A stretch of 64,000 nucleotides of DNA from Ascidiella aspersa (Eukaryota): contig OZ004612.1 in assembly GCA_963924565.1 (NCBI GenBank), positions 29,698,001 through 29,762,000 of the forward strand. The letters run 5' to 3'. A model generated the notes under the pieces. It had not been told where the DNA came from and did not search any database. It was given only the letters and a program-made list of their open reading frames with translations. Below, one piece after another: positions 20,401 through 64,000 of this stretch (its first letter is position 1; each line of letters opens with the position of its first letter). Made by a program: the position numbers and the translations under genes.

Positions 20401-20688
20401 GTTTATTTAGCGTTTGCGCTGCGGGCCTAATCCCTTTTTCCCCGCTAGAAAGCCCAACCCAATGCCAATCACTTCTCGAAACTGCAAAGCACTCATCACA
20501 TCGCGTGTAATCGAACCAGTGACCCTCTGATCGATTACAAGCACTCTCAAATCGACAAGATCCTGGCTTCTTTGATTTTCTCGGCCGGATTTAATTACGT
20601 TTCGTGTCGCAAAAACGCAACGAGGCGATACAAATAAGCACACACACACAAGAGCTCGCACCAATGAGCATCCAAAAATCCGAAAGCT

Positions 20689-21375
20689 CATACACAAATA
20701 AGTAGCATTCTGTAAACCATGCAAACAAGTTAGCATATTGGCTGGAGGTTGTAGTTAAACGTTTAATGAATATCAAAGCTCATACTGGAGTAGGTAGAAT
20801 TCATCGAACATTTCAAACAAAGATTAGTATATTGACTGGTGGTGGAGGTAAACGTACAATAAATATCAAATCCAATACAGAAGTACAGTAATAGCATGCT
20901 GTGGACGTTTCGAATAAATCTTAAAATAATGTCTGGAGGTTGAAATTAAACGTACAATTAATGTTAAAGCCCATACATAAATAAGTAGCATTCTGTAAAC
21001 CATGCAAACAAGTTAGCATATTGGCTGGAGGTTGTAGTTAAACGTTTAATGAATATCAAAGCTCATACTGGAGTAGGTAGAATTCATCGAACATTTCAAA
21101 CAAAGATTAGTATATTGACTGGTGGTGGAGGTAAACGTACAATAAATATCAAATCCAATACAGAAGTACAGTAATAGCATGCTGTGAACGTTTCGAATAA
21201 ATCTTAGCACATTGGCTGGAGGTTGTAATTAAACGTTTAATGAATTTTTCAGAAGTAGGAAGTATTTTGTAAACGTTTCGAATATAAAATTATTCATTTT
21301 CAACACGAAAATTCTGCCTTATTTTGTATAGGCTTTGATATGCTTTCCACGTCTAACTAAAACTCCAGCCATTAT
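20689..21375. repeat. Tandem array (285-bp direct duplication of ~90-100-bp subunits) derived from a dispersed foldback MITE family
   Basis: GCTGGAGGTTGTAGTTAAACGT..AATATCAAAGCCCATACAGAAGTAGGTAG units; other family copies at ~6410-6560, 22965-23085, 31640-31860, 34110-34230, 41445-41545, 41990-42085, 44875-45120. Confidence 0.88.
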
Positions 21376-28600: not shown

Positions 28601-31600
28601 CTCTGGATTAATCAGCTTGGTAGCGTTCGGGTAAAGATAATATTTTATTCCCTCCGATGCGCCATCTAGTGTTACGCCGCGAATCAGAATCATGAAAATG
28701 AGGAGAAAGGGGAGGGTGGCAGTCACGTACACAACCTGGAATAAACAACAGGCGATGTTAGCAAAAGCAAATTAACAACGCAAAAAATACCTAATTTTTA
28801 GGAAAATTTTTCTTGTTTTTTTTGTTTGAAACCTAGTTTATTTTAATGAAAAGCAATACTTAAAACGGAACCCTAGAAAAAAGTTATTTTATATTAATTT
28901 CCAATAATTTATTTTTAATTCTCACTCGTTGTTTAATTTCAAAGTACACACCGTTTCACATTAAATAATATAAAAAAAAACACGTGTCCAAAAATTGTTT
29001 TTTTCGGGGTCACATAATTATCGTGATAAGTTACAATTTCGATAAACTTAATTTTATTGTCTGGATTAGTTTATCTAACATGCGATAGGCCTTGATTTAA
29101 ACGACACACAAAAACAACATGTCTAACATAGTTGTAACCAAAGTTCACTCTAAGTTGTTTGTCAGATAACCAAATACACAACGCCGCCTCCCAATATTTC
29201 CTAAAAAACTTTTTTTTTTCTTTGACCTTGGCTGTCCATTTGATGCCCTTGAAAGTTGAGAAGTAGATCCCGACCCACAGGATCGCAAGGTAGAGCACGA
29301 GATCTCCCCTCAAACTGCCCACGTTCTCAATCCCCGAAGAAACACCGAGCACCTCCCGGCTAAACAAAGTCAATTTAGCGTGGACTTGATTGCTCATTTA
29401 TTTAGCCAAGGTGTTATTTGTTGGTGGTAATCACAATCGATGTAGTTTTTGTAACGAACATTTTGAATGCACATGTCAGCAAAGAATGACATTTGCAAGA
29501 GTTTTATTACCGCTATTTGAATTTAGTAACGAAACGAAATCACTGTACGGCGCCCATGAAAATTAGAATGACGTTTGAAAAAACCCAAATATTTAAAAAA
29601 ATAGTATTCAAAGAACGACTGCCCACTATTCTTATTAAGTTAACGACAATCAGTTGGCAGTCTTACACCTGATGAAAACCTTTTGTCGTGATACCAATTA
29701 CAACAATTAACAAACGTTGACAGGAACAACACACTAACAATAACCCAAGCGCAAACTGGAAAATAATTTACATCAAAATTAAAATCTACGAGAAGCTAAC
29801 AATATGTTATAGCTGCCCATAAACCCAACGAGACCTAGAGGTTTCTTTTAACCTAAGTGTTAGTCTTACTATAACTAAACCTCAGGCCGTCTCTGGTTTG
29901 TAGGTGGCTTCCCATATTGGCCGCGCATTTGTGCCTAACTACCCCTGGGAAGGGTTTAATGCACGCTTTTCCCTTGTGTATTGTGGGAAACTTGCTTAGC
30001 ACGTCACTAGGATCAAAAGGGCATTTTACGCTTCTGGTAATACTATATTTGTTTTCACCCGCAAACTTCCCTTTATAAATTTGAAATTTAGAGATATATA
30101 GGTGGCAAAATTATAACTCGGTTTAAAAAAGGAAATTTAAAAATGTTTGTAGTTTATTTATGTAATTCGAAATTAAAGGTTTGTAGTGTTGTAACACCTG
30201 TACTGGAACTTGTTTTGGTTATCACCAGTTTAATGAAACATTGAAAGATTTAGCAGTGAACTGAAAAATTTATATACACACGTGATGTATATTATGTGAT
30301 CTATAGCCTTTCTGAAGTAGTAGTGACTAACGATATTGGCTTATATTATATAGTACACTCATGTCTTCCCCAGTTATATCACACTAATGTCTAACACTAC
30401 TGATTTTATGTACTTTGTTTTCGCTTCATTTTCTTGAAGACTATTCTAAGAAAATAAAGGCATACTATAATTATAGAATAAAACAGTCACTTGGTCCAAA
30501 TAGCCGTTTTACGCTTTCAGATATGTAATTAATAATTTCACCGGCGAAAGTTGTCTTTATAATGGAAAGTCTTAGCCAATTGATGGTGGTAAAACTTTAA
30601 AATTAAAAAACAAATTAATTGGGAATTAAGCGATTTGAAATTCGACAGACCAAATAGATAATAGTTATGGTTATTAGTTGTGTCATACTTTCACTGAATT
30701 TTTTTGGTTATCGTTAGTTTGATAAAATAAGAGAAAAAGCAATGGTGTGAAGAATCCAAAATTTTAACACTATTGAAATAAAATATTTCGTCTTTGCTTC
30801 AAGTCTAAAACGAATTCTGTACACCAACTGGCGCTATTGCTGTTTATAAGCTGGAAGAGTTATCTAGTAATGCGAAGCGGTAAAAAAACAGTGAATAAAT
30901 CAAAATACCATATTGCGCTGGGAAATAAGAGTCTCGCAGCATTTCAAGTAAAATGGTCCAGTCTTTAAACGTATATCTGTCGTTTTTTTGGTCCTATCTA
31001 TCTTTTATCTTTTCTGCGTCCGTGCGTCTTTTTCTTCCGCCGTGTAACTTATTACCACGTAATAAAAAAAATAGTAAAGCAAAGCGCATTAATTCCTGTA
31101 CAACCAGTCTCTCTTCATAACGCTTATCGCAATCCACGTTGATATATTCTTAAGTGGGAGATTGACAGGCGAGTTCACCTTGAGTGTTGAGCCACTTGAC
31201 TCGCACTTGAAAAAAATAAATATAGTGTAAGTCAAAGTAAAAAAGTGGTGTTTCAAAAAATCTTGTCGAATACTTTACATTAATCGGTTTTAAGTGGCGG
31301 TTAATGTTGTGCGAAACGTAAAGTGCTATTAAACTTATGCAGTTTCCATGACTCCTAATATCGATGGACCAGTTGGACCACCCAGCTTTTAGAAGTCGCG
31401 CAAATCTTGACGTTATTGTTTTGTATGAATACATCATTGTAGTTCTTTTTTAAGGTGTTGTTTGTTTTTAAGGTGTTTTGTATATTGAGTAATCGTATAT
31501 CTGTACTACCTATGCATATTGGCGTGTTATTAACCTTGGAAAAATATAAAAGGTTTTAGTTTATTAGCAAAATGCGCTTTTGCCAAAGTACCCCACCACC

Positions 31601-34600
31601 CCTGTTAATCCATAACGTTTTTCGTGTCACATGTTGAAGCATAATGAATAGCTGGAGGTTGTAATTTGATGGGAAATAAAATTCTTTAGATGTAGAATGA
31701 AGTAAAAATCTCTGAAGCGTTGACAAAATGCTACCTACTCATATATGGGCTTTGATTTTTTATTCTTGTCTAACTACAATCTGCAGCCATTATCTTAAGT
31801 GTTCAAAGCGTCCACGAAATGAAACCTACTTCTGTATAGGTTTTGATATTTATTCTTGTCATCCACATTTTAGTCGGTAATGTCGGGAATTAAGTATGGC
31901 GTACCGTGGATTGTATATAATTATTGTTTTTGACAGACTGCTAGTCCTTTTCCCGTTGCCGACTCAATGGAAAAATACCGTAAACATTCTATTCGGTAAT
32001 GGAAAAATACAAAACAAATTCCAAGGCCCAATAATCTGATGGAGGTTTGTCAACCATAGCTAATCAAGTTAAAAGTATGCCAGTAACAGAAAGGAAAGGC
32101 TATAGGAAGCCACGTGTTTTATCTTTATCGCCTATTGATCCACTCATGCACGCTATATCAAAATCAGATAGGGCCTCCAATCGTTAAAATCATGCCGGAA
32201 AGTCATTAAGGTTCAAGCCCAATAACGCCTGTATCAAAATCCTGTGGTCTACTACGCAACGTTGCGCCTTACTGTATAATAAGGACGTGATTATAATATA
32301 GATCCGGGGTACCGGCGGAATGTTACTTCAATCTCTCTTAAGATAACGTTAGATGTTTAGATTGCACACGGTCCTACATAATTATAAAACGACATTAATT
32401 CGTTTTATGTACCGTTTTCTTTACTTCTTTTTGCTTGGACTTGGCTTTCGTAAATTGTGTTTTTTTTTCAAATAATTTCACTCTATCGCATTGGCAAGTT
32501 TTAGTTGAATTGTCCAATTTATTAAGTGTACAATAAGAAAATATAATATTTGACTAACATTTTAAACTGATAAGCGTTCTAAAACAGCGAGTATGATTTT
32601 TCTTAAGCCGTTGTTTTAAATTTAAGTGGAAGCATTATTATTCAGTTAAAAGAATATTAATTTTGCAGTCAACAAGCCCTGTAGACACGTAGTGTACACA
32701 AAAACCGGGCATATCTAAGAAACATTCCGCGCTATGCGGTTTGGTCATTCAAATGGAAACGGCGCGTAGTTTATCACCAATACAAGCCTTGTGAACAGAC
32801 CACACATTTAACAGCGATGCATATCTCAGTAAAACGGACGTTAAATTTAATATAGGGCGGGTTGACAAGTTGACACACATCCGCTAAATAGTAATAGAAT
32901 AACGCGGTTGTTGAATATCTTGTAAATAAGCTACAAGACCCTGCGACTTAACCGAAGGGCTTATAACAGTGATGTGATATTGGAAAATAGAATAAATCAA
33001 TTAATTAATTATTGTCGCCCCTTAACCCCATCAGTATACTACTATGGTTTAATATCACAGCGTAATATTCAATTTCATTGAAGACTGCCATAAGTCGAAA
33101 ATGTAGAAAACAATCAAGATTCAGTTTTGACTGTTTTACTGAAACATCTTAGTTGTTATGTTTAGGGTAACAGCGTGTTAAAATTGATAAGAATTTCAAA
33201 ATATCTGATTGGTAACATAAAGTTTTCGGTCCATAAGCCGAAAATTGCAGAATGTGATCCTGAATGTGCTTTATTAAATGTTTACTCAAGAATCATAAAA
33301 ATTAAAAAGCAACTCCAGGTTCTACCACAAAAAAGCTACCAGATCGCCCTACAATATACTCTTCATTATACTTATCTAAAAAACTTCACGGAAACTGTAA
33401 TATTGCGTTTAATGATATGTTTACGCAGCTACCATACATCAATAGATTTACCCAAGGTTTACGCAGCTACTTGACATAAAGAAGTTTACTACATCGGATA
33501 CCTTCGGAAAGGCACGGGCTTGATCACAGAATACACATTGTTTATATATAAGTTTTCAGCTTCTCAAGGTTATACAACAAAAAAACACCCTAGAATGCCT
33601 ACAAAAGCTATGTCAAACTCACTTCCAAAACTCATGCCTTCGGAAAAGCACGTCTGCACACATTGTTTATATTACCGTTTCAGTCAAGTTTATAAAACAA
33701 AATAAAACACATAATTCCTACAATACACAGCGTTAAACGTACTTCCTACAACTCTTCAGCTGCTGCACAGAATACATACGTTTTATGAACGTTTCAGTTA
33801 CTTATACAACAACAACCCTAGAAATCCTGTTATAGTGTGTCATACTCACTTCCAAAACTCCTCAGCTGCCGAGATCGAGGTATTAGATCTTGTGAGGTTT
33901 TGCGAGGTGAGGTTTGAGTTCGGCGTTACGCAATCAGGGCTGTTCCAAACATTGTCACAATGAGACCAGGGTAGAGTGGATTGGAAGCTGGTAACGAGGT
34001 ATTTAAAAGCCCACACTAGAAGAATGGGGTAGTAAGTGTTGCAGTAGAACATGGTGACCAATGCTGCCAAAGAAATGCCTGAAAAAATTGCAATTTTAGG
34101 TTTGTATTTCGAAACATTATGCTATACATAGTTCTGTATGGGCTTTGATATTTATTCTAAATACAATCTCCTAAACTTTTACATATTTGTGCATGGGGCT
34201 TGATATTCTTCTACGTATACAGTAACTACAATGCTATCATGCTCAATTTGTTTTTAAATTTGACTTCACTTACTGGTATAAATTTGACTAACTGATACTT
34301 TTCGCTACACTTCAGTTTGTTCAAGACACGTGATAAAAATCAGGTTAATGGCTGCTTGTTAAAAAAGTGACTTTGCGTCAAATGTATTTGTGTTGTTATT
34401 GACGTCTGGTTGGCTAATTAGCAACTAAATAAATTGTAGGGATTGATGTTTTAAATGAAAATTGTTGTCTGACTGATTGGATCAGGTTTCGTGAAATTCT
34501 GTTTTAAAACTCGTAGTTAAAAACAGTGATTCCAAAGCAATTAGTGGCTTGATGTGACAAGTCAAGCATTTTGACACGGTGAAATCAGGCTAAATTTAAA

Positions 34601-38789: not shown

Positions 38790-41335
38790 TTACGTGTGAT
38801 GGCGTGGCTATCCATTATGCGCGACTACTACTAACGCTACGATAAAGCCTCTATTTTCCAAGAGACCGTTAATTTTAACAGCGCCAGCTTTGGATCTTTC
38901 TGGTAACCAGTGGTAAATAAACAAACATCCATGGAAAAAGTATAATCGGTTATATTCGCGTTTTTCTACAACCTAAAGGCTTTGAACATTGTAGACTTTC
39001 TACAGTTCACTGTTCTTTCGTTATAGTTTGGTTGCTGAACAATACCATTTTCTTGGACACCTACCACAACCATTAGGCACGACCACTATAACGCCAGTTA
39101 AAGCCGTTATTCCCTAGAGACAGTTAATTTTAACCACGCCAGCTTCGGCTCCTTAAACCGTAAATAAAACAAGCAAACATCGAAAAATTATTATCCGATT
39201 ATATTAACATTTTTCCACAACCTAAATGGTTTAAAAACTGTACACTTTCTACGTTTAACCGTTTTTTTTTATTATATCTTTGTTACTAAACATTAGCTGA
39301 CAATTCTCGGACGGCTATACGACAGCGACTAGGCACAACTACTACTAACGCTACGATAAAGCCTCTATATTAACTTCTTTTCTACAACTTAAATGGTTTA
39401 AAAAATGTACACTTTCACAACTTAACCCGTTATCTGTTATAGCTTGGGTAGTCAACTGTAGTCGACCATTGTTGGACAAATATACCACAGCGACTAGGCA
39501 CAACTACTACTAACGCTACGATAAAGCCTCTATTCCCAAGAGAGCATTTTTTTAACCAGGCCAGCTTTTGTTTCTGATCACCGACCGTAAATAAACAAGC
39601 CAACTAAATAGACGTTGTTTTGTTATAGCTTGGGTACTCAACTGTAGTTGACAATCCCCGGACAGCTATACCACAGCGACTAAGCACAACTACTACTAAC
39701 GCTACGATAAAGCCTCTATATTAACTTCTTTTCTACAACTTAAATGGTTTAAAAAATGTACACTTTCACAACTTAACCCGTTATCTGTTATAGCTTAGGT
39801 AGTCAACTGTAGTCGACCATTGTTGGACAACTATACCACAGCGACTAGGCACAACTACTACTAACGCTACGATAAAGCCTCTATTCCCAAGAGAGCATTT
39901 TTTTAACCGAGGCCAGCTTTTGTTTCTGATCACCGACCGTAAATAAACAAGCCAACTAAATAGACGTTGTTTTGTTATAGCTTGGGTACTCAACTGTAGT
40001 TGACAATTCCCGGACAGCCATACCACAGCGACTAAGCACAACTACTACTAACGCTACGATAAAGCCTCTATATTAACTTTAAAAAAAAAAAAAAAACTGT
40101 ACACTTTCACAACTTAACCTTTACCTGTTATAGCTTGGGTACTCAACTGTAGTCGACCATTGTTGGACATCTATACCACGGAGATTAGGCACAACTACTA
40201 CTAACGCTACGATAAAGCCTCTATTCCCAAGAGAGCATTTTAACCGAGGCCAGCTTTTGCTCCTGATCAACGACCGTAAATAAACAAGCCAACTAAATAG
40301 ACGTTGTTTTGTTATAGCTTGGGTACTCAAATGTAGTCGACCATTGTTGGACACCTAACCACAACCATCAGGCACAACTACTACTAACGCTACGATAAAG
40401 CCTCTATATTAACTTTTTTTCTACAACTTAAATGGTTTAAAAAACTGTACACTTTCACAACTTAACCCTTTATCTGTTATAGCTTGGGTCCTCAACTGTA
40501 GTCGACCATTGTTGGACACCTATACCACAGCGACTAGGCACAACTACTACTAACGCTACGATAAAGCCGTTATTCCCAAGAGACCATTTTAACCGAGGCC
40601 AGCTTTTGCTCCTGATCACCGACCGCAAAGAAACAAGCCAACTAAATAGACGTTGTTCTGTTATAGTTTGGGTACTCAACTGTAGTTGACAATTCCCGGA
40701 CAGCCATACCACAGCGACTAGGCACAACTACTACTAACGCTACGATAAAGCCGTTATTCCCAAGAGACCATTTTAACCGAGGCCAGCTTTTGCTCCTGAT
40801 CACCGACCGCAAAGAAACAAGCCAACTAAATAGAAGTTGTCTGTTATAGTTTGGGTACTCAACTGTAGTTGACAATTCCCGGACAGCCATACCACAGCGA
40901 CTAAGCACAACTACTACTAACGCTACGATAAAGCCTCTATATTAACTTTTTTTCTACAACTTAAATGGTTGGAAAAAATTTACACTTTCACAACTTAACC
41001 CTTTATCTGTTATAGCTTGGGTCCTCAACTGTAGTCGACCATTGTTGGACGGCTATACCACAGCGACTAAGCACAACTACTACTAACGCTACGATAAAGC
41101 CTCTATTCCCAAGAGACCATTTTAACCAGGCCAGCTTTTGCTCCTGATCAACGACCTTAAATAAACAAAGCCCCTCAAATGGACTAAAAAACTGTACAAA
41201 TTTACTAAACAATAGTCAACCACATTCTTGGACTACTATACCACAATTGTTAGGCGCTACCACTACTAACGCTTCTATGATAAGCCTCTATTCCCAAGAG
41301 ACCATTAATTTTAACCAGGCCAGTTTTTGCTCCTT
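38790..41335. repeat. Complex satellite with two alternating monomer types (~165 and ~185 bp), upstream of SLC6 coding exon 1
   Basis: ~14 copies of the core CCACAGCGACTARGCACAACTACTACTAACGCTACGATAAAGCC. Confidence 0.95.
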
Positions 41336-43723: not shown

Positions 43724-45169
43724 CTCTATACTCTAGCAAATCTACATAAATCACACTTTGTAGGTTGTCCTGGCCCAGTTCTGTCATTTATACAAAGTAC
43801 AATATGCTAAACAGGAAGCTGTCGACCTCTGAGATGACTAGGTTAACTGGCCTATGGTGACATATGATGTCTCACTGGCGACTTGGCAAAACAAACGCTG
43901 TTGCTGCTTGGAAAAGCATATAAGCGCTTGTTAACGGACGTGACTATATAATGCAGCAGTATAAACACACTTGGAACTTCTAATTGGACGGGCACGCTCG
44001 CTCCATTCCCCAGCTGCCACTGCGACACTCACTTGGATTCGACGAAAATGCCCCTTGGCTAGAAACAAATGTGGTTCTAAATGAGAAAAAAATGAAGAAG
44101 GCCGCGTTTGATGTGGCTTTGTAAGCTGACAACACTAAATCGATCGCTCCGCGTAATCTGCATATGAAAGAAAGCGAGTGAAAGTTGTATCGCATATCTA
44201 CTTGAAAAGAAACCTGAAAAGTTGTATGCATATCTACTTGCGCTGTTTTCGGATCAAATTATCTCATATTTTTCTAGAAGAAATATTTAATATTTTATTT
44301 TTCGTTGTAACCTGAATTCCTTATACCTTCAGGGTCAACTGACTTGATAACCATTTTGTGGTTCTTCGTTGATCCTTTGCTACTGTGTTCGGATTTTTAG
44401 CGACAAATGAACAGTTATCCTATATCACAGTCAAAAGTTTATTTGTCGTAGCATTTAACTGTGTTACGCGGTTTAAAATTAACCAAAGAATGCTTGCGCA
44501 TTTATTTGTTACTTGTAAGTCGTTTAAACCCTTGAAATTGCACGCCACATGTCAATTATTCTTAAACCATTTCCTAGAGGCAATAAAAGTTACTAAGATA
44601 TTGAACATAGTTTTTGCTAGTGGTTATCAAACTTTTCCAGGTTGCGGCGCACTAACAAACCGATAAACAAATTCCCGGCGAACTTCAATCGCAAGAAAAC
44701 AATTTAATATTTTATTCTTCTTGTCATATTTAGATCATTCGCATCATTACAACGGTGGTAATTTGTCAAAAGTTGCGAACTATTTTTTGCGAGGTTTAAA
44801 ATCACTGATCGAAACACAGAATAAACCCAACGAACACCCAAATTAATTTATAACATAGGTGTTTATAACATACAAAATACAACCTCCTGCTGTGTGACCT
44901 TTGATATTCATTTTACGTCCAACTACAACCTCCAGCCATTATATTAAGATTTGTTCTAAAGTTCAAAATGTTAACTACTTCTTGGTTGGCTTGACATTCA
45001 CCCTGCATGTAACTACAACCTTCAGCCATTATGTTAAGATATATTCAATACCTTCATATCATGCCAGCTTTTCTGTATGGGCGTTGATGCCGATTCCACG
45101 TCAACCTTCAGCCATTATGCTGCTATTTTTTAATCTGTAAAATCACTTTATTAAATATTATTTTTTAAG

Positions 45170-45680
45170 TTCAAGTTCGGCTGTACTTGGCTGCTACACA
45201 AAAACCCAACAGTGTTTGTTGAGGAAGGGTAAAATGTAGTTTAAGACTATCCGGGCGAAATATTAAGTTCTTCTTTGTCACATTCAAGTTCATGTTTGGC
45301 TGTGCTCGGCTGCTCCACAAAAACCCCACAGCTTTTTTTTAGCGAGGAGCAAATATATTCTATGACTATCCGGACGAAATATTAAGTTCTTCTTTGTCAC
45401 ATTCAAGTTCAGCTGTGCTTGGCTGCTACACCAAAACCCCACAGCTTTTTTTAGCGAGGAGCAAATATATTCTAGGACTATCCGGGCGAAATATTAAGTT
45501 CCCCTTTGTCACAGTCAGGTTCCAGTTCAGCTGTGCTTGGCTGCTACACCAAAACCCCACAGCTTTTTTTAGCGAGGAGCAAATATATTCTAGGACTATC
45601 CGGGCGAAATATTAAGTTCTTCTTTGTCACATTCAAGTTCAAGTTTGGCTGTGCTCGGCTGCTACACAAAAACCCCACAG
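45170..45680. repeat. Tandem repeat, ~4 copies of a ~110-125-bp unit
   Basis: GCTGTGCTTGGCTGCTACACCAAAACCCCACAGC..GACTATCCGGGCGAAATATTAAGTTC repeated. Confidence 0.93.
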
Positions 45681-46561
45681 CGTTCCACCAGAAGGCGAAC
45701 TCGTTAGCTCGTTAATTAAACAAAGTCCCAAAGTTGAATGAGGAACTGAAATACTCTGCTATAGTGGCTTATATTAACTGCCTTTTTGCAACTATTATAT
45801 TGAATCGTCATATATATAAGGTGAAACATTATAATATTTTGAATAAATCCAATTTGCGAAACTGCTGACGTTTCTGTGTGTTTTTAATGAGAACAAATAA
45901 GGTATGACTAAAAATACTTCATATTATTAGTTTTTGTTTTTAGGAAACGTTTAATTAGAGATGACGTCACAAAGTTACATCTAAACGTGACGTCATAAAA
46001 CGTAACCTTAACAACAACACAGTTTGTTTATTTTAATAAAGTTTTGAGTTGGAGAGGTGTTTAATACAAAAGCTATATTATAAACATGTCAATATGTTAT
46101 CGATTCGCGCAAAGCTAAGAAACGCCTTTGTATCATTAAGCTGCCAATGCTTTCCGTTATATGGTGCGATAAGACGCATGACGCCTTTGTTAAGACATGG
46201 TAGAAATGAAATTCAATTGTGTTTGTAGTTAGTTACGTTGTTATAATAGGCAAAATGCATTTTTCGTGAGGAAATGGCCTCGTGGCCCGTAAGAAACGCG
46301 GCTCTTTGCAATTAACCAAGTAAAAATGCGACTTTTTGCGGTTAACGAAGTGAGAAATGTGGCTCTTTGAAATGCAATTAAATTTTGTAGTTACGTTGTT
46401 ATAATACGCAACAAATGCAGTTTTGTTGAAATGACCTCGTGGCCCGCACCTGGCTTTCATAAGTTTGCCTCGTTCAACGCGTAATACAAAGCTCTGTAAC
46501 AAAACACTTGAATTACGCTAAACGTGGTCATCCAATTACGTCATAAACTGGTACATTCGTA

Positions 46562-52551: not shown

Positions 52552-55500
52552 GTTTAACCCTAACATAATAACTGTTGTCTGATTCTCCTCAAGTTGAAAG
52601 GATTATCTCGGCTATACGCTTCACAATAGACTAAAGTATGCTTGCACGTCCCTCAAACAGTTTGTTTGAAGGTTTGCCTCTATTGACCGCTAAGACATTT
52701 TATGTAAAATAATCATACTTGCTAAGTTCCAGAAATAGGCTGTATTTTAAGAGATGCCTTTGGAGAACTTATAAAGACTGTTTGGATCCAACACCTTGAA
52801 AGAACCTTTTATATGGCCCTGCTATACGTTACGAAATGCAGAGCTTGAGACTAGCCTACATGGGTTATTCACTATGCTCAGGTCTGACATTTTATTACGT
52901 CTTATTCTTGCTACGAATTCATCTTCTGCTGACAACCAAGCTACAAAAGACGTTTAACAAATGCATTTAACCAGCTGCTATAGCAGAAGCGGGATTAGCG
53001 GATATAGTGACTCCCTCGCTTCCTATGTAATGGTCATTTAGCTATAAGTTCCGAAAACACATCACATAGAGACGTACACGCTATTCACACAGTGCTTTAT
53101 TGTTTTTTTAAAATGGTATTCTATAAATTATTTAATCAACAATCTGACAGGCTCTATTTAATCCCTAAGGTCATTTTATTTTTTGTTATCTATAAACATT
53201 CGGTGAGATTCAAAACTAACAGGCACTTTATCTAACAATGAATACAACTAAAGAGATATCCGGTACTTGATTGTTTATCGATATTTTTGGCCAAAGGCGT
53301 CCTATACGATACAATGCTAATTAACTTTTTATGCCATAGTTTGCTTTATCTTATAAAGTAGCTCTTCTGAGCTAATATTAGTAAAAGCTGTTCTAAATAA
53401 TATCATTTTTTAAGATGTTCAAGGTAAACTTCAAAAGTTGTTTTACAGAAAATCATGCTTTCATTGGCAAATTTGCTACTTATACATCAAAAACGTCACC
53501 AATTTTATCCTAGAATCGGACAAAAAACGATAATTGCTATTGGATATCGTCTTCGATCTAAAAAAATTCGGATATTTCTAGATACAATACGTTACATAAA
53601 GCGAAAATCCTAACTTTTCTTACTCCTATCTTTTGTATTGCATGTTCCGGTTTGAATTATTGGACCAACATTTTTGATAGGTTGGATTCAATCGCTAGAT
53701 ACATGTTTTTTTTTGGTATCTTAACATTCGCGAGATTCGACGCAGATCTCTCGGGTTGTAGTTGTTTTCTTGTAGAGTAAGTTCTGTCGTCTGCGTTAAA
53801 AAAGATGCAGTAAAATCGTTTCATTGAATGGCCGTTTTAGTTGGTGTCAACGTCATTTTTCAACAACATGTGATTTTCATTTGTCGGCAATTGCGGAATA
53901 TCTTAGGTAACGTTGTGTAAACAATCAGTTCGCTTTTAAACTTTCCGGCCATATTAAATGCTTTCCACACGAATTCACAACTATACAACCTACGGTGGCC
54001 GACTTAACGAACTGGAAGCAGTATCTTTGGAACATCCCGCTGTCAATCAAACAAATTTAATCCGCAATAAGTCACCCACTATATACGGCCACTTATCAGC
54101 ATATCCTGTAGCGAATATATAATTTTCTGTGGTGAACCGCGCTGTATTTGCGAGAGAATATTACAAAGCCTATATAAAAAAAAACATGGGTGGTCAACCT
54201 TATTATTTTTGGTGGGCAAGCTTATTAGTCTAAAACATGGGTGGGCAAGCCTATTAGTCATAGGTAGTAAATCAAAATACAACCACAGCACGATTGCCTG
54301 CTGCATCATTATGCATGGAAGTGGCAGTGTTTAACGACAAATTGTATTAAATCTTGAAAAACATTCGCACATACGTGCTTTACTTAAACAAAGCATAAAT
54401 GGAAGCAGGCTTAGAGAATAGTAAGCTGAGAACCAAACACAACACCGTTGTCTACTTTTATAACGTTTCATCAACGAAAGCATGCTTTTGCCATCTGATA
54501 GCTTCCTACTTCGGCCTTCAGGTGGTTTCAAAACTGAAAGCTTAACAACCAATAACTTGAAATAAGTTGGCCAAATTACGCGGCGTGAAAAACTGTTTTT
54601 CAGACTTATGAAAGTTTGTAAAGCTACCACCAATAAAAAGGTTTTCACTTCTAATTTAGACATTTAATTGTTGTAATAATATCCGCTTCGTTATGGAACA
54701 ATTTTTGGTGGTCATAAATGAACCTGTTTCAGCGAAATTTGTGACACGAATCCGATATAAATGTTTCTTAAAGCGATCAAACACGTTATACATTTTTAAG
54801 TATCTTTTTAATTTCTTAGTCAAGCTTCCCTAACAAGAACATTGCAACTTGGTTCCACTTTAAATTTAGCCCCACTGTTGGTTTGTGGTTATCTGCTAGT
54901 CAGTTCTGTTTATATTGATGTATGCATATGATTAGACCGTTGAAGCTAGATTTGTTCACAAGTTATTTAATATCTTATTATAAGCGAAAACTCGTATGAC
55001 TTACTCTATTTATAATTGGGATTTTAGATGCTTTCTTTAGGGCTTGAAGACAACTAATTATAGTTACAAATGGAAAGAAAACTCAAACAGATTTACATAT
55101 AGTTTCCGGGCATTTATCTTCAAATCCTGGCTAACAATAAATAACGGCCAAGCTTTGGTACAATGATTTGTTTTGAGGTATTTTCGTTTTACGTTGCTTT
55201 GTTCAGTTTTAGCCAGGCTATTAATTTCTTTGGTCGCTTTGATTGGCTTCTGTGGTGATTTCAAACTAGGTTTAATATTTTAAACCTGATGTGAGCGTAG
55301 GCTTTAATTTCACAAGCGTTAATTGATTACTCAAGAGCTTTTAAGAGACACACGTCCTAATTTTGAGTAAGAATGTCCGATACTCGATATTTTTACAAAC
55401 ATTATCGCGATACGATACTAAATGACCCGATTACCATGATGAAACAAGTACATTAGATGGATCGAAACGTTCAAGGCATCTTTTTTAAGGTTTTCGGATA

Positions 55501-55569
55501 CAAATTGGCTTAGCGTTAAGTAGTTACCTATGATTGTTAACCTTCTGTTTATGATAAATTTACCCTTTA

Positions 55570-55826
55570 ATTTAACGCTACGATTCTACCCTAAAGGCCT
55601 GTTTACACTACAGCTGCACTGAGCTGAGCAAAGCGTAATTTGCATTTAAATTATATTGTGGCGAGCGTTTCACGCTTTGCTAAACTCAAGCCCCGCGCAG
55701 CTAAAGAAACACGTTACGTTTGGGGCGATTTTTTAGTGAAAACAATTTCACGCCCAGTGCAGCTCAGCTCCGCTCAGTGCAGCTGTAGTGTAAACGGGCC
55801 TTTAGGGTAGAATCGTAGCGTTAAAT
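55570..55826. mobile_element. Palindromic MITE with ~55-bp inverted arms and Harbinger-like inner termini
   Basis: 55570-55624 is the reverse complement of 55772-55826 with one mismatch; contains GGCCYGTTTACACT. Confidence 0.8.
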
Positions 55827-56327
55827 CGGCATTTATGGCCGGAGAATTTCTAATGATAACTTAGTATCGGACCGGCACCTATATTAACACTCGCTTTCGA
55901 TCTGATAATTTCGGACTTCCCAAATTTTGAGCAGATATTTTATTTTCTGTTACTTTTGAAAGTTTTGCATATATGGGAGTCCATTGACCAGGAGTTAAGT
56001 TTCCTTGACGGCAAAACCAAATTTTACAAGTGTGATATTTTTATTTCTACTCGAATTGAGAGTGTCCATTTTTGGATACAAACGAAAAACTCACCATAAA
56101 ACAAAACAGAAATGTAAATACCTTACAAAAAGCTAGTAATACAAACAGACTTTATAAACGTGATTTATTTTACTTCTTCTCAAACTGTGTGTCCGTTTTG
56201 GGAATACAAACGAAAAACACCATACAAATCAAAAAGAAATATAAATGCAAAAGCTAGCAATACAGACAGACTGTAAAACCATAATAAAAGCCAGTGGGAT
56301 TATTTCAAACAGCTGATGGTGATTTAT

Positions 56328-56487
56328 TCACGCTTTTGAGTTTTCTGTTTGTGTTTCGTCATTATCGGCCAACAGCGATGCTCTTGTGACGTAAGAAACG
56401 ACTGGCTTGTTGGTGACGACACTGGGCTGACGCGAAAACGCGAAATCCATCGTTGGATCCTTTTGCATCGATATGAACGCTTGGATT
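56328..56487 (-). CDS. Terminal exon 'tail C' (IQAFISMQKDPTMDFAFSRQPSVVTNKPVVSYVTRASLLADNDETQTENSKA*); phase-compatible with the TM exon at 57242-57375 (97-aa product)
   Basis: attttacag| phase-2 acceptor, GC-richer coding-like composition, TGA overlapping AATAAA. Confidence 0.62.
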
Positions 56488-56561
56488 CTGTAAAATATTT
56501 TAGGATTAATGATTAAATAAAAGGTTGAGAGACACATTATTTAAACTAAATCAGTGGTAGT

Positions 56562-56782
56562 CAGGGACGCCGGAGAGGGGGGGCGCGGGGGGGGCGGGGG
56601 CAAGCGCCCCTCCTGCCCTTTGCTAAGGGGGCAAATCTAGAGGGCGTGGCCGCAAAAATTTTTCCGAGGGAGCACCCCCCGACACCCTAATATTTCGGCT
56701 CGCTACGCTCGCATGCGGTCTATGTTGCCCTTACCAAAAAAGTCTCACCCCCCCTTGCCCTGAAATCGCTTCGGCGTCCCTG
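56562..56782. mobile_element. GC-rich hAT-type MITE (221 bp) in the intron between TM exon 2 and tail C
   Basis: Perfect 11-bp TIR CAGGGACGCCG; perfect TSD GTGGTAGT. Confidence 0.92.
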
Positions 56783-57241
56783 GTGGTAGTCAGCCCAAAG
56801 TTTTGGGGTATATCTCCTTTGATATGAAAACCTACTTTTATACTTACTACTTATATGTAACGAGTTTTCGCGACCAAGTGTTTGTCTGTCACCACATTGG
56901 GTTTTAGCTTACTTGTGGCTGGGTTGGTATTTTTAGTTTTTACTCGAAATTAGAAGACAGTTGAAAACCTTTGACTATAACAAGAGATTGGTTTAGTTAG
57001 CAGGTCACCAAATTATACAATGATCCGGCCCGCAGAAATAATTTAACTGGCATATTCCTTTAATGAAGTTAAACTCATTAATAACCTCAACAACATAATA
57101 TATACTTAGTTCATAGTTATATATACGTCAATTGAAATAGTTCTACACTTGGATTTTTTGCGTTTGTGGGAACCTTACCAAAGCAAACAAACAGTTTTTA
57201 CTTGTTACCTACTGTTGGTTGCAATTTACTTTTTCTCTTAC

Positions 57242-57375
57242 CTCATTTTTGCTATGTCTTTTCTTATTTTGCACAAACACATTACAGATAGGATGGAAAG
57301 AATCAGCGACAATACCCCACAACAAATTAAACTGGAAATCTGCCATAATTCCATCACACCTGTATAATTCTGCAT
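57242..57375 (-). CDS. Putative first coding exon of a small single-pass membrane protein, copy 2 (MQNYTGVMELWQISSLICCGVLSLILSILSVMCLCKIRKDIAKM-)
   Basis: Same 134-nt length and frame as copy 1; phase-2 donor AG|GTAAGA. Confidence 0.75.
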
Positions 57376-57422
57376 GTTCTAATGAAACTTTAATGGCTAC
57401 TAAATGATACTCCCAAAACGGT

Positions 57423-57458
57423 ACTGAATAGTTTCGCGATTAGACTCTTTTTTTTATA
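57423..57458 (-). promoter_or_regulatory. Core promoter (TATAAAAA plus TCAGT initiator) of TM-exon copy 2
   Basis: Same geometry as copy 1: TATA at 57458, Inr A+1 at 57425, ATG at 57375. Confidence 0.5.
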
Positions 57459-58120
57459 TCGCCTACTGCGGCTGGCGCGCTAAGGAATATAACTAGCTTA
57501 GTTAGGCTATTTGCATATTTATTATTTCCTTAATAGACTTGTTGACGCAAATCTATTTAAGGGCGTTCCGAGAAAGCTTTAAACGGACGATATTGTTCTG
57601 TATTTATCTATTTGTTAAAAATGGAAACTGTGGTCTTATCGAACTGATCTGTTTGATGTCTAGTCCTCTTACTTGTATATTCATATTAAAAACTTCATGT
57701 CACAACTCGATACATTTTTATTATTTACATTAAAAAAATGGCCACATACATGTAAAGTTTTTTATACTAATTGATTATTCGTCTATAACAAAATGCTTTT
57801 CATTTCATTCTAATTTCATCTCGGTTTTCGTGAAACATTTAACGAAGAGAAATTCAACTTTATATTTCCTAAAACAAGTTTTGCTCGTGGACAATAATCA
57901 CAAATTCGAAAAAAACGATGAAAATGTCTTGCGCACAGTGTAATGAATAATGATGGAAGATGTGGGTATATTTAGGCCAATAAAACACTAGGTAACAATG
58001 TAAACCATTTTGTTAGCCACAAATGGGTTATTATTCTTTTGGAAAAAACAGCTGTTTGATTAAAAGAGTAATGACTAATTCTTCTAGTGGAAGGTCTATC
58101 GTGATACAAAAACAACAATT

Positions 58121-58523
58121 TTACGTTATATCATCTTGAGTTTGGTTTACACAGTTAATATCCATGTTGTAAATCACGTTTTTCACCGTTTCACATTCAC
58201 CCGAACTCTCTGCGTTTTCCATTTGAAATATTTTCCCATCTGAACCTTCTTTAGCCACAGAAAGACTGGCTGTGCAGATCGAAGCTGTTTTCTCTGTAAT
58301 ATCGCCAACAAAGCTCTCTTCAATGGTGGCGTAAGTCGGCGCTTCTACGTCATCGTGCGATTGTGAATTGGTGTCGATTACAAGTGCAGCGTCTTGTTTG
58401 TTTACTTTATCATCGTAGCGCGTGGGTGTTTCTCGTGCCATCGAGTATACAACTGTACCTGCTTGATCAGCAATGCTGTTGCTATCTTTGACTTGTACAC
58501 ACGCTGTTTTATGCAATAAGCTC
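58121..58523 (-). CDS. Terminal exon tail A-prime (paralog of 61974-62376); phase-compatible with the TM exon at 60998-61131 (178-aa product)
   Basis: ttattacag| phase-2 acceptor; open frame of 133 codons; both synonymous and non-synonymous differences from the other copy. Confidence 0.72.
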
Positions 58524-60284
58524 CTGTAATAACAATATATATATAAGAAGGCGTACCTTTAATCTAAAACCATTGGCATTCGGTTTCTGCTTGTCGATCA
58601 CTGTTCCGCGTATATCACCAATAAAACTTAAAGTTTAAAACCCAGGTAAACCAAAATTATCCATTTTAAAAAAAATATATTTTTCGTATATACTGGCAAT
58701 AAATATTTCTTGAAAAAAAAAATATATATATATTTCGCTTATAATAGCATTATATATGTATGGAGAATATATGTATACATATTTTGCCAATAATGGCATC
58801 GTCAGCTCCTTAACGCTCCTTAACGTGTCAATAATAAAAGACTGCCGGAATTACTTTCAAAAATAGTCTCCTTTGAACCCTAACTGAAAAATGTCGCATT
58901 GTTTTTATACCTTTAATAGCCTAATATCCTTCAACGTGTCAAAAGTGCCACTAATACACAACAAAATGCGATACTTGGCAAATCGTTTAACCCTAATACA
59001 CACAAAAACAAGTTACATACACTTTGTACAAGCAGGGCCGGGTTAACATAGTGGCAGATGTGGCAGCTGCTACGGGCCCCGCGCTTGGTGAGCAAACATT
59101 GTGTTTTTGGCAAAAAAATGTCGAACATATGGAAGTTGGTAAGAAATTTTTGGCTGACAAACTGGAATGGCGTGGGATAATATTATAGTTGTAACTTGTA
59201 AGTTTAAATTACTAGTCCCAAAATATATTGATAAACAAAATGCACAATAAACATATATAAAAAATGCTAGAAACAATTAGTTACATTCCGAGCCGTTTTA
59301 CCAAACTATACAACGGGTGTGCAATTTTTCCTAAATGCTTGCTTAAAAGTCATGCACGAGCAACGATGTGTTAGACTAGCGGTTTTTCAGAAATGTTTGT
59401 GAGAGAACTAGCCTCTCAATTATTTGGTGACTTGTGTGCTCCGTCTGATCAACAAATCATTTTTGCGAAGCGCAAAACACACAAAAACTTAGCCAAGTTA
59501 TGTCACCCATGTAATTTTGGTAGGCCTACTTGAAAAATATATTTTTGGTTTAAAACACTAAACATTAAATAACGCAATAAAGTTCGTTTGGATTGGATTT
59601 TCTGGTCCATCTATAGATAGATTATATCAAAAAAACAAGGCAACAAAGTACTGTTGACGTTTTTTATACATTTAGACGTATCTAAACCATTACGATTAAG
59701 TGACAATATTGGCCTAAATTAAACGAATACCACCATGTAAAGGCAACTATATTCTGCACAGGAAGCACAGCCCTTAACATGCGTACTGTACAACCAATAT
59801 ATAATCCAAATAAGTCATGCTAAATGTCGCCATTGCTACTTTGGCAATACAAAGTTTTTCGAAATATCTTAAAATCCGCTTGGACCAAGAATTGGACCTT
59901 TTTTGGAGGAATTTAGTAGAAAAACTATTGAGGCAAATAATTTTTTTTAATGATAGATTATAACTAGAAACGTATGGCTTCATTTGCTACGGTATAATAT
60001 GCAAATTTAAGACTGTTTTCAGTTACAACGAGTGTAGGTGAAAAAATGAATATAACGTTAAAGCAACATACGCATATCTGAAATGAATATAAATGCAAGT
60101 TCAAACATCAGCAAGTATAAAAAAGTCATTAAACAAAGTATTTTCTCGGTCGGGTACAACAGCAAAAAATAGAATATATTTTAGAATGTAAAACAAAAAG
60201 GTGTTTTACGCGCCGTGAGATATAATTTAAAATCATAATTGCCTTATTCATTTTTCCTGCCAGCCTCTAAAAGTTTAAAAACCC

Positions 60285-60620
60285 TAAGTTTTGTGCGTCG
60301 TAAAATGTTGTCTCGTTATGGTTCGGCACCTGCACTTCGCTATGGACAGATGTTGTGCGCAGGTTTGGGCTTTGGAGACGGCTTTTTTCACGCATCGTTT
60401 AGGCCCGCCGAATGTTGTCTCGTTTCTCCTCGCTGTTTGAAAAGAAATACCTCGACTATTTTCGTAGCTTTCGTAATTACTGCTGAAGTCTGAATGTCCT
60501 GCCCTCGTGACTTTCCTGGATGTTTGTCGAAAGTAATGCAGGTTCCTCTTCTTCCGCTAACTCAACGATATCTTCGGTCGAACCCGTGACATCAGCGGAT
60601 GAGCGATGTCCTCGAGGTCT
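60285..60620 (-). other. Candidate exon or pseudo-exon 'tail B' downstream of TM exon copy 1
   Basis: GC-richer island after a tgccatag| acceptor. The phase-2 frame reads DLEDIAHPLMSRVRPKISLS* and then stays open ~90 more codons. The frame is ambiguous. Confidence 0.35.
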
Positions 60621-60997
60621 CTATGGCACAAATTATTTTTCAAGTATTATAATGACATAAACCTAGTATGGGAGTGATGTATTCTGTAAAATGGTTTAAA
60701 ACTCTTAAATACAATGGTCATGCAATCAAAATCATTGGTTGCCAAACTTGATTTTGGGGGAATTTTTTGGAGTGATATACAATACAATACATCATTATAG
60801 TCGTTAAGTTAATTTAAACAACATAATACTAGTTTGATGTCTTTGTAAAACATATTTGTGCTGTATTATTTTATTTAATACTGGCCCAAGGCTACTATAT
60901 AGTCATATATAGGTCAATTGGGATTAGTTTTTACTTGTTACCTACTGTTGGTTTTAATTTTGAATACAAAAGTTAATTGCAATTTTTTATTGCTTAC

Positions 60998-61131
60998 CTC
61001 ATTTTTCCTCTGTCTTTTCTTATTTTGCATAAACATAATGCCGAGAGAATGTAAAGAATCAGCGACAATATCCCACAACAAATTAAACTGGAAATCTGCC
61101 ATAATTCCATCACACCTGTATAATTCTGCAT
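60998..61131 (-). CDS. Putative first coding exon of a small single-pass membrane protein, copy 1 (MQNYTGVMELWQISSLICCGILSLILYILSALCLCKIRKDRGKM-)
   Basis: ATG in AAC-ATG context after an in-frame TAG; ~22-aa hydrophobic run, CLC then KIRK; strong phase-2 donor AG|GTAAGC. The frame is conserved without indels in the paralogous copy, with synonymous third-position changes. Confidence 0.75.
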
Positions 61132-61178
61132 GTTCTAATGAAACTTTAATGGCTACTAAATAATACTCCCAAAACGCT

Positions 61179-61214
61179 ACTGAATAGTTTCGCGATAAGA
61201 CTCTTTCTTTTATA
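61179..61214 (-). promoter_or_regulatory. Core promoter (TATAAAAG plus TCAGT initiator) of TM-exon copy 1
   Basis: TATAAAAG at 61214-61207; Inr A+1 at 61181 (33 nt spacing); 50-nt ATG-free leader to the ATG at 61131. Confidence 0.5.
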
Positions 61215-61973
61215 TCGCCTACTGCGGCTGGCGCGGTAAGGAATATAACTAGCTTAGTTAGGCTATTTGCATATTTATTATTTCCTTAATAGACTTGTTG
61301 ACGCAAAGCTATTTAAGGGCGTTCCGAGGAAGCTTTGAACGGACGACACTGTTCTGTATTTATCTGTTTATTGAAAAAGGGAAATGCAGTCTTATCGAAC
61401 TGATCTGTTTGATGTCTAGCCTTCTTACTTACATGTATAATATAAATTTGAGTTGAACTGTTTGACGTTTCCAGTTGAGGTACGGATGTGGTTCAAGGAT
61501 TTTTTCGGAATCCGGTTCAGTTCCTGTGACGTTCGTAGCCATTTAATAGTTTCGGTTCGGGCTAGGTTTGACTCACTGTTTTTTTATTCCATACACTATT
61601 TTTAGCTCGATTTTCGTAAAATATACAATTCAACGCTATATTTTCCAAAACAAGTTTTGCTCGTGGGTGGTATATGGCATTTTTGTATTTGATTCAATTA
61701 AAAGAAATAGAGTAATGATCTAAAACAATTAGACAATAATCAGAAATTGGAAAAGTACGATGAAAATCTCCTGCCTATAGTGTAATGATGAAAAATATTA
61801 AATACATTTAGGTCAATAAAATATTAGGTAACAATGTAAACCATTTTCTCGACCACATACAGGTAATTATTCTATCGGGGAATATAAGAATGTCTCCTTA
61901 CTTAAAATAGTATAATGAGTATAATGCATACTTGTTCTAGTGGAAGGTCTGTCGTTATTCAATAACGGCTATT

Positions 61974-62376
61974 TTAAGTTACATCATCTTCAGTTGCATT
62001 CACACAGTTAATATCCATGTTGTAAATCACGTTTGTCACTGTTTCGCATTCACCCGAACTCTCTGCGTTTTCCATTTGCAATATTTTCCCATCTGAACCT
62101 TCTTTAGTCACAGAAAGACTGGCTGTGCACATCGAAACTGTTTCCTCTGTAATATCACCAACAAAGCTCTCTTCAATGGTGGCGTAAGTCGGCGCTTCTA
62201 CGTCATCGTGCGATTGTGAATTGGTGTCGATTACAAGTACAGCCTCTTGTTTGTTTACTTTATCAACGTAGCGCGTGGGTGTTTCTCGTGCCATCGAGTA
62301 TACAGCTGTACCTGCTTGATCAGCAATGCTGTTGCTATCTTTGACTTGTACACACGCTGTTTTATGCAATAAGCTC
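61974..62376 (-). CDS. Terminal exon 'tail A': acidic, probably disordered cytoplasmic tail with Tyr motifs (AVYSMA, TRYVD, PTYATI, VIYNMD); its upstream exon is probably outside the window
   Basis: ttattacag| phase-2 acceptor, 403-nt open frame; frame conserved without indels versus the copy at 58121-58523. Confidence 0.72.
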
Positions 62377-64000
62377 CTGTAATAACAATATATATATAAG
62401 AAGGCGTACCTTTAATCTAAAACCATTGGCATTCGGTTTCTGCTTGTCGACTGTTCCGCGAATATCACCAATAAAACTTAAAGTTTAAAACCCAAGTAAA
62501 CCAAAATTATCCATTTGTTTAACTATATTCTTCGTATATACTGGCAATATATATTTCTTGAAAATAAAAATATATATTTCGCTTATAATAGCATTATATA
62601 TGTCTGGAGAATATATGTATACATATTTTGCCAATACTGGCATCGTCAGCTCCTTAACTCGGAATTTTAAACTTTGAGTTTGTTGTCTGCAATAACAACA
62701 AAAGTTTAAGTATTTAGTTTAGGAGATACTATTTACCCGGCTAACAAAGTACTTTTGATCGTTGTTTAATCACAATTAGAGAAACGCTCACGGAAAACAA
62801 AGTAATTTGAAATATTTAGGGAATACAGCATGCCAATAATAAAGAACTGCCGGAATTACTTTCAAAAATAGTCTCTTTGAACCCTAACTGAAAAATGTCG
62901 TATTGTTTTTATACCTTTAATAGCCTGTCGCAACACGTCAGCACATCAAATTAATTCTTTGTTTTATCGCCTTAATGTTGCGTCATGAAAGTTTTTGTTT
63001 AAATTCCATTGCCGATATCTCTTGCTAGAGTTTGCAACGAATGCCTTGTTACACCAATTTTTATGCGTCAGAGCTGTATGTGATGTGACGTATATCCGTT
63101 TAATGTGAGCGCTTTGTTTTGAAATTCGCCTTATTGTCAACAATCCATTATTTTTAGAATCGAACGCCAGTTACGTCGCAATGTAGATCGAAGCGCTTTT
63201 GTTCAAGCCATATTGGGACAAAAATATTATTTCCGTCTATAAGAGTCGAGAGAAAAAGGTTTAGACCACGCCTTGTTATCACGTGATACTTTGTTAAGTA
63301 TTATAAGAATTAATGACGTAAATCTTTCTTTATCGCAGAAATTTTCTTAACTGATTCTCGTCTATAAATAGCGTGTTCAATCAATATAAACCAGAGAGAG
63401 AGAGATAGGGGCTTTTATAGCTACTACTCAGACAGCAAACTCGAGTGCTTTTGTGACTGAACCAGTATCACCCAGTACTGCCTAGTGCAGAGGAGGCTTT
63501 TACAGCTTTTACTAAGACAGCAAAATTGACTGTTCATGTATCTGAACTAAAGGAAAGAATTGGACCTGAATGGCCTCACGAAGACAGGCCATCTCAAATC
63601 TTGTAGGAGTGTGGTCGATTCATCTTGGCAATTATATAAATGAAGACTCATTAACGGACCCAAAACCCCCACAATTGATGCCCGCGAGTGAGGAACGAAC
63701 CACCTGCAAACTACTTTCCCAAGAAGACTGAAGAAACGAAGCTGAAGTAAAATTTGGACCTCAAATCGAACAAATACTTTGCAATCGACGACGCGGACCA
63801 CTTGCAAACTGCTTTCCCAAGAAGCCGGACGACGAACTCTATTTTCCCGCATATATCTTATGGACAAGAAAAGATGTGCCTTCCAGCTACAAGCGACCGC
63901 CTAAAAACTGTCATGTTTGGAACTTGCAAGAAGCCAGCTTTAGAAGAAAATAATCTCAACGAAAGATACGTGAAGAGACGCTCCATAGCGTCAGCAAAGC

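Follow-up and report, generated by a model that had tools for sequence, protein, structure and literature searches.

This work concerns positions 57195 to 62925 of a 64,000-nucleotide window of the Ascidiella aspersa genome (assembly GCA_963924565.1, contig OZ004612.1; G000:C6:29698001-29762000, contig C6 below), in which the tail exon of a receptor gene and the first exon of a putative small membrane-protein gene are duplicated together. Positions above 64000 continue the window numbering into loci L001-L008 and L014-L017, and every gene treated here is on the minus strand. Exons are designated A (tail exon), T (transmembrane, or TM, exon), B (imported exon), and C (candidate distal exon), with numbered copies. 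Read on the minus strand, the exon order is A2, T2, B1, A1, T1, and C (Table 1). A first-pass annotation of this stretch had reported the same order and had proposed that a duplication unit crossing a gene boundary places one membrane anchor in front of different signaling tails. The order and the duplication are both borne out by self-comparison, which pairs 57193-57674 with 60926-61430 at 88.5% identity, 57890-58814 with 61732-62658 at 87.7%, and 58826-58922 with 62831-62926 at 94.8%.

Table 1. Features of the interval and of the upstream receptor gene G0, in window numbering (continued beyond 64000)
Feature	Positions	Strand	Remark
C, candidate last exon	56328..56487	-	52 codons in frame after T1; stop overlapped by AATAAA
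T1, TM exon	57242..57375	-	ATG, strong donor, phase 2
T1 predicted core promoter and 5' untranslated region (UTR)	57376..57458	-	motif match: TATAAAA 57458, initiator A 57425
First AATAAA past A1 stop	57717..57722	-	motif
A1, intact orphan copy of G0 last exon	58121..58523	-	133 codons, phase-2 acceptor
Dispersed repeat, intron upstream of A	58531..58698	.	matches on several contigs
Dispersed repeat, junction of A-side sequence and imported block	59033..59228	.	sequence matches
Segment homologous to contig C3	59229..60634	.	76-77%; part of imported block
B1, copy of phase-0 last exon of C3 gene	60290..60620	-	C3 comparison
T2, TM exon copy 2, frame intact	60998..61131	-	phase-2 donor
T2 predicted core promoter and 5' UTR	61132..61214	-	TATAAAA 61214, initiator A 61181
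A2, intact orphan copy of receptor tail exon	61974..62376	-	sequence comparison
5' long terminal repeat of nonautonomous element	62926..63674	+	element runs to extended 66900
G0 tail exon A5	78681-78279	-	predicted
G0 TM exon TM0	79683-79548	-	predicted
G0 ectodomain exons	80997-80803 and 80460-80230	-	predicted
G0 signal exon	82155-82116	-	predicted

The crossing of a gene boundary stands, but the unit ends first assigned to the duplication do not. Position 62926 is the edge of a long terminal repeat (LTR), and the array, which continues to about 79.3 kb, holds A and T five times each and B four times; B is thus part of the repeat unit, and the window holds the distal end of a five-unit array. 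Four A copies are whole and one (A3) is truncated, while four T copies are whole and one (T5) lacks the promoter and the 5' half. Past the window, the copies are 94 to 98% identical. The LTR element (62926-66900) has 749-nucleotide (nt) LTRs with one difference (99.9% alike), a 4-nt target duplication, and no long internal open reading frame (ORF). Its empty site is found in unit 1, and similarity picks up again at 66900; the element is evidently a recent insertion that creates the apparent end of the duplication. The family of this element is transcribed from the plus strand in RNA run X4, of which about 6 in 100 of the run, or 7.8 million records, were sampled.

Damage to the copies comprises the LTR insertion, the loss in T5, the truncation of A3, and frameshifts in B. 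Depth was taken from DNA read runs X1, which may come from the source individual, and X2. As summed contig depth, a rough measure that gives no copy number, the B region stands at 222 in X1 against 57 to 60 in adjoining single-copy bins (about 4-fold) and at 300 in X2 against about 105 to 115 in neighboring bins (about 3-fold). The junction of a 649-nt deletion in the short unit is present in both runs.

The units are mosaics. Unit 1 diverges from unit 4 by 0 to 2% upstream of A and in the 5' part of A and by 25% behind the A stop codon; by sliding divergence, a stretch of unit 1 lies 5% from unit 3, yet 49 to 50% from the other units. T2 groups with T5 (2%), apart from T1, T3, and T4. We infer that repeated unequal exchange or conversion left this switching of partners along unit 1. 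The mosaic units fit the unequal crossover invoked by the first-pass annotation; the T-B junction, in contrast, stems from the import of a segment from another chromosome and not from a crossover within the blocks. Because conversion blurs identities, the events cannot be put in a dated order.

Upstream of the array lies G0, a predicted receptor gene with a complete five-exon ORF of 334 codons, no stop, and exon phases of 1, 1, 1, and 2. Since A5 ends this complete gene in frame, A is the receptor's own last exon, and A1, A2, and A4 are orphan copies of it. A1 and A2 share 379 of 399 nt; A1 carries the motifs VYSM, YATI, and IYNM, and exon A has one YxxI core motif. Among pairs of A copies, the ratio of nonsynonymous to synonymous differences per site (pN/pS) ranges from about 0.55 to above 1, and the corresponding ratio of substitution rates (dN/dS) is uninformative.

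Exon T encodes the predicted anchor. T1 opens with a 10-residue N-terminal stretch bearing an N-glycosylation sequon, followed by a TM helix free of charged residues and by juxtamembrane cysteines and basic residues. All four whole copies encode an uncharged 20-residue helix with two cysteines at its inner end, then basic residues and a consensus phase-2 donor, and T1 and T2 share 107 of 118 nt. A promoter before the TM exon, as the first pass had supposed, was recovered as a motif match: in all four whole copies, TATAAAA stands 33 nt ahead of an initiator-like TCAGT, and the first ATG follows 50 nt on in the frame of the helix. The pattern was defined after the sequence had been seen, and the TATA/initiator pair occurs 15 further times in 328 kb, counting both strands. 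The spacing of -33 falls just outside the peak of -32 to -29 given for Ciona in the passages cited here (PMC4691747). No signal-peptide exon was detected in any of the four A-to-T gaps (three of them whole, at 746 to 844 nt), and no ectodomain (WPP) exon was found in these gaps. Because no signal or ectodomain exon precedes T and the TATA/initiator/in-frame ATG arrangement recurs in every whole copy, T is likely the first exon of a small TM gene that lacks an ectodomain and has a predicted start site.

Comparisons with other exons gave no relative of T. T and TM0 yield no protein alignment, and their DNA score lies within that of shuffled sequences (233 of 300 reach it); no relation to the other TM exons of the family was detectable. 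The six candidate paralogs in the genome are the five array copies and one match at an E value of 0.86. The score of the T promoter against the G0 promoter likewise stays within shuffles, the compared window being partly off-center. No T-like or A-like exon was found in the second receptor cluster (60 kb at C6:28.735-28.795 Mb and 10 kb at 30.36 Mb) or upstream of 84 kb (best tblastn E values, 0.5 to 0.9), and no Pfam family was assigned to T, A, B, or C.

Exon B belongs to the imported segment. Contig C3 near 19.06 Mb is 72 to 80% identical to the stretch 59229-60634 and to a fuller copy at 70242-73833, which includes an SLC43-like gene. On C3, B is the last exon, after a phase-0 donor, of a predicted two-exon gene for an ectodomain-less TM protein of 250 amino acids (aa) (L011:5913-7111; G000:C3:19060913-19062111, minus strand). 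The ATG of this gene lies directly before the TM helix, its tail has six tyrosines in an acidic context, and its first exon is single copy in the genome, although a further upstream exon is possible. Because homology between C6 and C3 ends 14 nt upstream of the B acceptor, B came without its first exon. The T-B intron scores within shuffles against the C3 intron and, past the first 60 nt, against the T-C intron. Behind the phase-2 donor of T, B would be read out of its native frame in all four copies, giving 21 residues without a tyrosine; read from T2, B1 would stop at 60557. After T, the native frame could be regained only by way of a GAG that lies two bases farther downstream, and use of such a site as acceptor so close behind a TAG is disfavored. 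Published passages on acceptor choice describe a scan to the first YAG. The native frame has indels relative to C3 in all four copies, with extra frameshifts in three. Deletions of 1 nt near nt 77 and of 14 nt near nt 120 disrupt it in B1, where it is lost at nt 77, ahead of the first tyrosine, and neither reading of B1 contains a tyrosine. In B2, the first 191 nt are free of indels relative to C3, and two tyrosine clusters are retained (pN/pS, about 0.3).

The array also holds an intact 461-codon intronless ORF of MFS type (Pfam MFS_1 below cutoff), which we take to be an SLC43-like transporter. It is intact on C6 (L001:5411-6862, minus strand) and frameshifted on C3 (L011:2741-3404). Since the transporter ORF is whole on C6 and the adaptor-like gene is whole on C3 but partial on C6, reciprocal loss after segmental duplication is indicated. 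Intronless SLC43-like transporters form an expanded family in this genome (16 matches).

Exon C has one tyrosine and no canonical motif. Under a simple acceptor rule, A1, B1, TM0, and the G0 exons E1 and E2 pass, and the acceptor of C does not. Of 552 control windows of 800 nt, 22% hold an open frame of similar kind that follows an acceptor-like AG, and 7% have an AATAAA too. The 3' half of C is 89% like one stretch of contig C4, and comparison with this homolog over 28 codons, which turned up three residue changes and an earlier stop, did not point to purifying selection on C. As a last exon spliced from T1, C would be a plausible partner whose status as an exon is weak. The C4 stretch is adjoined by a tandemly duplicated unknown gene (L013:1107-6960).

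The predicted products are T1-C (97 aa), T2-B1 (65 aa), and T2-A1 (178 aa). T would join both C and the next A in frame, the latter only when B is skipped; T-A contains four tyrosines, T-C contains one, and T-B contains none, and a full tyrosine-tail chimera is predicted to be possible only as T spliced to the next A with B skipped. T-B is out of frame, and B1 is frameshifted. The likeness to paired activating and inhibitory receptors had to be abandoned. In the passages cited on LILRB3 and LILRA6, such receptors have common ectodomains and differ by an ITIM, the tyrosine-based inhibitory motif of immunoreceptors, versus a charged TM residue (PMC3894450). This reading fails on all three defining features, since the T gene would have no ectodomain, no ITIM was found in the predicted tails of T1-C, T2-B1, or T2-A1, and the T helix is uncharged, with no activation motif (ITAM), hemi-ITAM (hemITAM), or switch motif (ITSM) in any of four predicted products. 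G0 has one ITIM pattern match, straddling the end of its TM helix.

No RNA entry is listed for window positions 55000-64000. In RNA run X4, depth is 0 over 57341-58007 and 58675-61342 and 0.3 in the bin with A1 and a dispersed repeat; the bins containing C and T1, likewise with a repeat, stay below 1. Depth is also 0 in the bins of A5, TM0, E0, E1, and the tail of the neighboring receptor G1 and below 0.4 in one E2 bin. Because the intact receptor G0 is thus essentially blank as well, the test is without power, and the silence says nothing about the copies.

We read the interval as the distal end of a five-unit array of A, T, and imported B that probably consists mostly of decaying duplicates and is probably no working device for tail shuffling (probability, roughly 0.55). 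T would open a small TM gene without an ectodomain, and the distal copy of this gene would be joined to C by splicing. The segment spanning the boundary between A and T would have been duplicated, with a C3-type block coming to lie between the copies, and later unequal exchanges would have multiplied the unit. Were the extra T copies transcribed, most of their splicing would be expected to reach B, the nearest terminal exon, and to yield a 65-aa anchor whose 21-residue tail lacks tyrosine; the orphan A copies would be used only upon skipping of B. The different tails beside T derive from imported segments and from the neighboring receptor, not from a swap between equals.

Several observations weigh against decay. 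The four whole A and four whole T copies are free of indels and stops. A and T together have 0 indels and 48 substitutions, against 7 and 62 in four flanking segments (Fisher p 0.02; p 0.04 once the private changes of the functional copy A5 are removed), in a comparison that left out the low-complexity intron upstream of A (17 indels, 59 substitutions); the 185 nt upstream of T also have 0 indels, with 14 substitutions. The private changes of A1 are five synonymous and nine nonsynonymous, and T2 differs from the other T exons with a pS of about 0.2 and a pN of about 0.07. Behind B1 stands only one ATTAAA and no AATAAA, which could favor skipping of B. The small counts of changes in A and T fit constraint as well as gene conversion.

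Such observations leave some room for functional chimeric adaptors, which we consider possible but clearly less probable than decay. Each T would then use its own promoter, and T1-C, T2-A1 (with B skipped), and T3-B2 (through the AG two bases downstream) would be made in frame. The recurrence of the promoter signature in four of four whole copies suits this alternative, as do the in-frame T-A and T-C junctions, the indel-free A and T frames, the state of B2, and the weak polyadenylation signal behind B1. Set against these points are the post hoc definition of the promoter pattern, the disfavored acceptor needed for an in-frame B, the want of tyrosines in B1 in both readings, and the weakness of C as an exon.

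More tentatively, LAT-like adaptors may have arisen by cassette capture, with the promoter-anchor exon copied beside the receptor and C3-type tails and joined to them by splicing, so that tyrosine scaffolds without an ectodomain would have a tail in common with a full receptor. In the passages cited (PMC12065747), ascidian genomes are reported to lack LAT homologs, so that the absent adaptor layer would have candidates in the T products and in the C3 gene; between them, the 250-aa C3 gene appears to be the better LAT-like candidate. Few extracellular residues and one helix link the predicted products of T and of the C3 gene to the transmembrane adaptor proteins LAT, NTAL, PAG, LAX, and GAPT, as portrayed in the cited part of PMC4861716; T has similar juxtamembrane cysteines, and predicted T-A and the C3 gene have a tyrosine-bearing tail. 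Unlike those adaptors, predicted T-C has one tyrosine and T-B none, and no test of sequence homology was positive. If spliced T-A or T-B2 products were made, they would mark a route to ectodomain-less signaling adaptors in a lineage said to be without LAT.

It is unlikely that the T copies serve as alternative 3' cassettes of G0, with E2 (phase 1) skipping TM0 and A5 to reach an AG inside T. This AG, 16 nt inside the T frame, would give a phase-1/phase-2 exon like the TM exons of the cluster, but it fails the simple acceptor rule (as does that of C), T is unlike TM0 and the other family TM exons (16 to 30% identity), and transcription would have to read through several AATAAA sites, the SLC43-like gene, and the LTR element. 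Slightly less likely again is that T is noncoding or the dead relic of an ectodomain-stripped receptor, with a chance promoter signature; the lack of a paralog elsewhere in the genome and the few synonymous differences in most T pairs would suit a relic, but all four whole copies keep a clean helix, basic residues, a consensus donor, and an in-frame first ATG. Finally, although the 94 to 98% identity past the window could be reached by allelic haplotypes, an assembly artifact of uncollapsed haplotypes is very improbable, given five A and five T copies with a nested LTR insertion and deletions between them, the raised depth, and the deletion junction shared by both runs.

G0 is the last of a tandem family of about 10 predicted receptors at 79-171 kb, a family with other members near C6:28.7 Mb and at further sites; the genome has at least 19 second-ectodomain exons (from 24 candidates). 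Members of the family have a type I architecture with a two-exon cysteine/WPP ectodomain, a stalk rich in the residue T, and tyrosine tails (L002:4279-8155 to L014-L017; L019-L025). For the receptors G1, G3, G4, and G5, the ectodomain exons group as (G1,G3)(G4,G5), with the alternative rejected by the approximately unbiased (AU) test (p 0.02), whereas the TM region and last 45 tail residues group as (G1,G5)(G3,G4), with the ectodomain grouping rejected (AU p 0.001). Six-gene trees give bootstrap values of 98 and 94. The quartet was picked after the identity table, its exons are predicted, and G0, G2, G8, and G9 were left out. This incongruence fits exchange between the ectodomain and TM-plus-tail parts of intact receptors. 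TM and tail would travel together in such exchange, contrary to the first-pass model, in which anchors and tails are shuffled.

The ectodomain is at most weakly CUB-like: a CUB match was obtained for one of nine scanned first-ectodomain exons, at an E value of 0.018, below the Pfam cutoff. PDB sequence searches with E1 and E2 profiles returned nothing under an E value of 0.2, a word-based protein search with the E2 exon retained none of 233 candidates, and the Atlas gave no usable match for E2 or A. Three uncharacterized type I proteins of Clavelina lepadiformis (P0005, P0020, and P0023) share the ectodomain motifs of the cluster, the T-rich stalk, the helix, and a tail (profile E values, 3e-13 to 5e-4); one Clavelina homolog is labeled CUB by UniRef. 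These proteins, with no function on record, relate to G0 and its neighbors and not to T, B, or C. The genome studied here also contains a 647-codon frame that matches cellulose synthase above the Pfam cutoff, a gene that among animals marks tunicates.

The process is of a known kind, and a literature search (supplements lying outside it) turned up no description of this locus, of this tunicate receptor family, or of partial duplication here with TM/tail chimeras. KIR and LILR hybrids likewise form in a tandem cluster, with mosaic units, copy-number change by unequal exchange, and junction repeats, but in the passages cited they keep the ectodomain and vary in TM and tail, where an ITIM stands against a charged TM residue, whereas the array unit lacks an ectodomain, a charged TM residue, and an ITIM (PMC2816608, PMC3894450). 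Botryllus fester and its co-receptors are also tunicate type I proteins with tyrosine core motifs and recombination between ectodomain and TM-plus-intracellular parts, with TM and tail traveling together; the cited text describes a different ectodomain and canonical ITIM/hemITAM motifs (PMC11507803). The incongruence found here carries the Botryllus pattern to a second, unrelated family. Hydractinia Alr shares partial duplicates, pseudogenes, exon shuffling, and unrelated tails and differs in being a cnidarian system with immunoglobulin-family ectodomains and ITAM/ITIM tails; within the part cited, Alr30 was a partial duplicate that later proved to be a real gene with a new tail (bioRxiv 10.1101/2022.03.04.482883). 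At the margin of an uncharacterized tunicate receptor family, the locus clearly illustrates birth-and-death turnover, and it cautions that apparent tail swapping needs a check of exon phase.

Other duplications mark the receptor cluster. A 6.8-kb tandem duplication (99.4%; extended 87159-93933 and 94095-100863) comprises a whole receptor gene and the 3' part of the next gene's tail, so that units crossing a gene boundary are routine there. At L004:6333-8585 (extended 100333-102585, minus strand), a 751-codon tail exon consists of 21-residue repeats with one tyrosine motif each, a motif array grown by 63-nt tandem duplication. Also inside the cluster, a duplicated 4- to 6-kb unit (97 to 98%; extended 113682-125925, L005-L007) carries a true CUB exon (Pfam E value, 4e-9) and T-rich repeats. 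Elsewhere in the window, minus-strand exons at 23634-34121 resemble what is presumably an SLC6 sodium-dependent transporter gene, the inverted-repeat element at 55570-55826 has high depth across the genome, and tandem minisatellite arrays occupy 38812-41335, 45164-45684, 20683-21284, and 717-1277.

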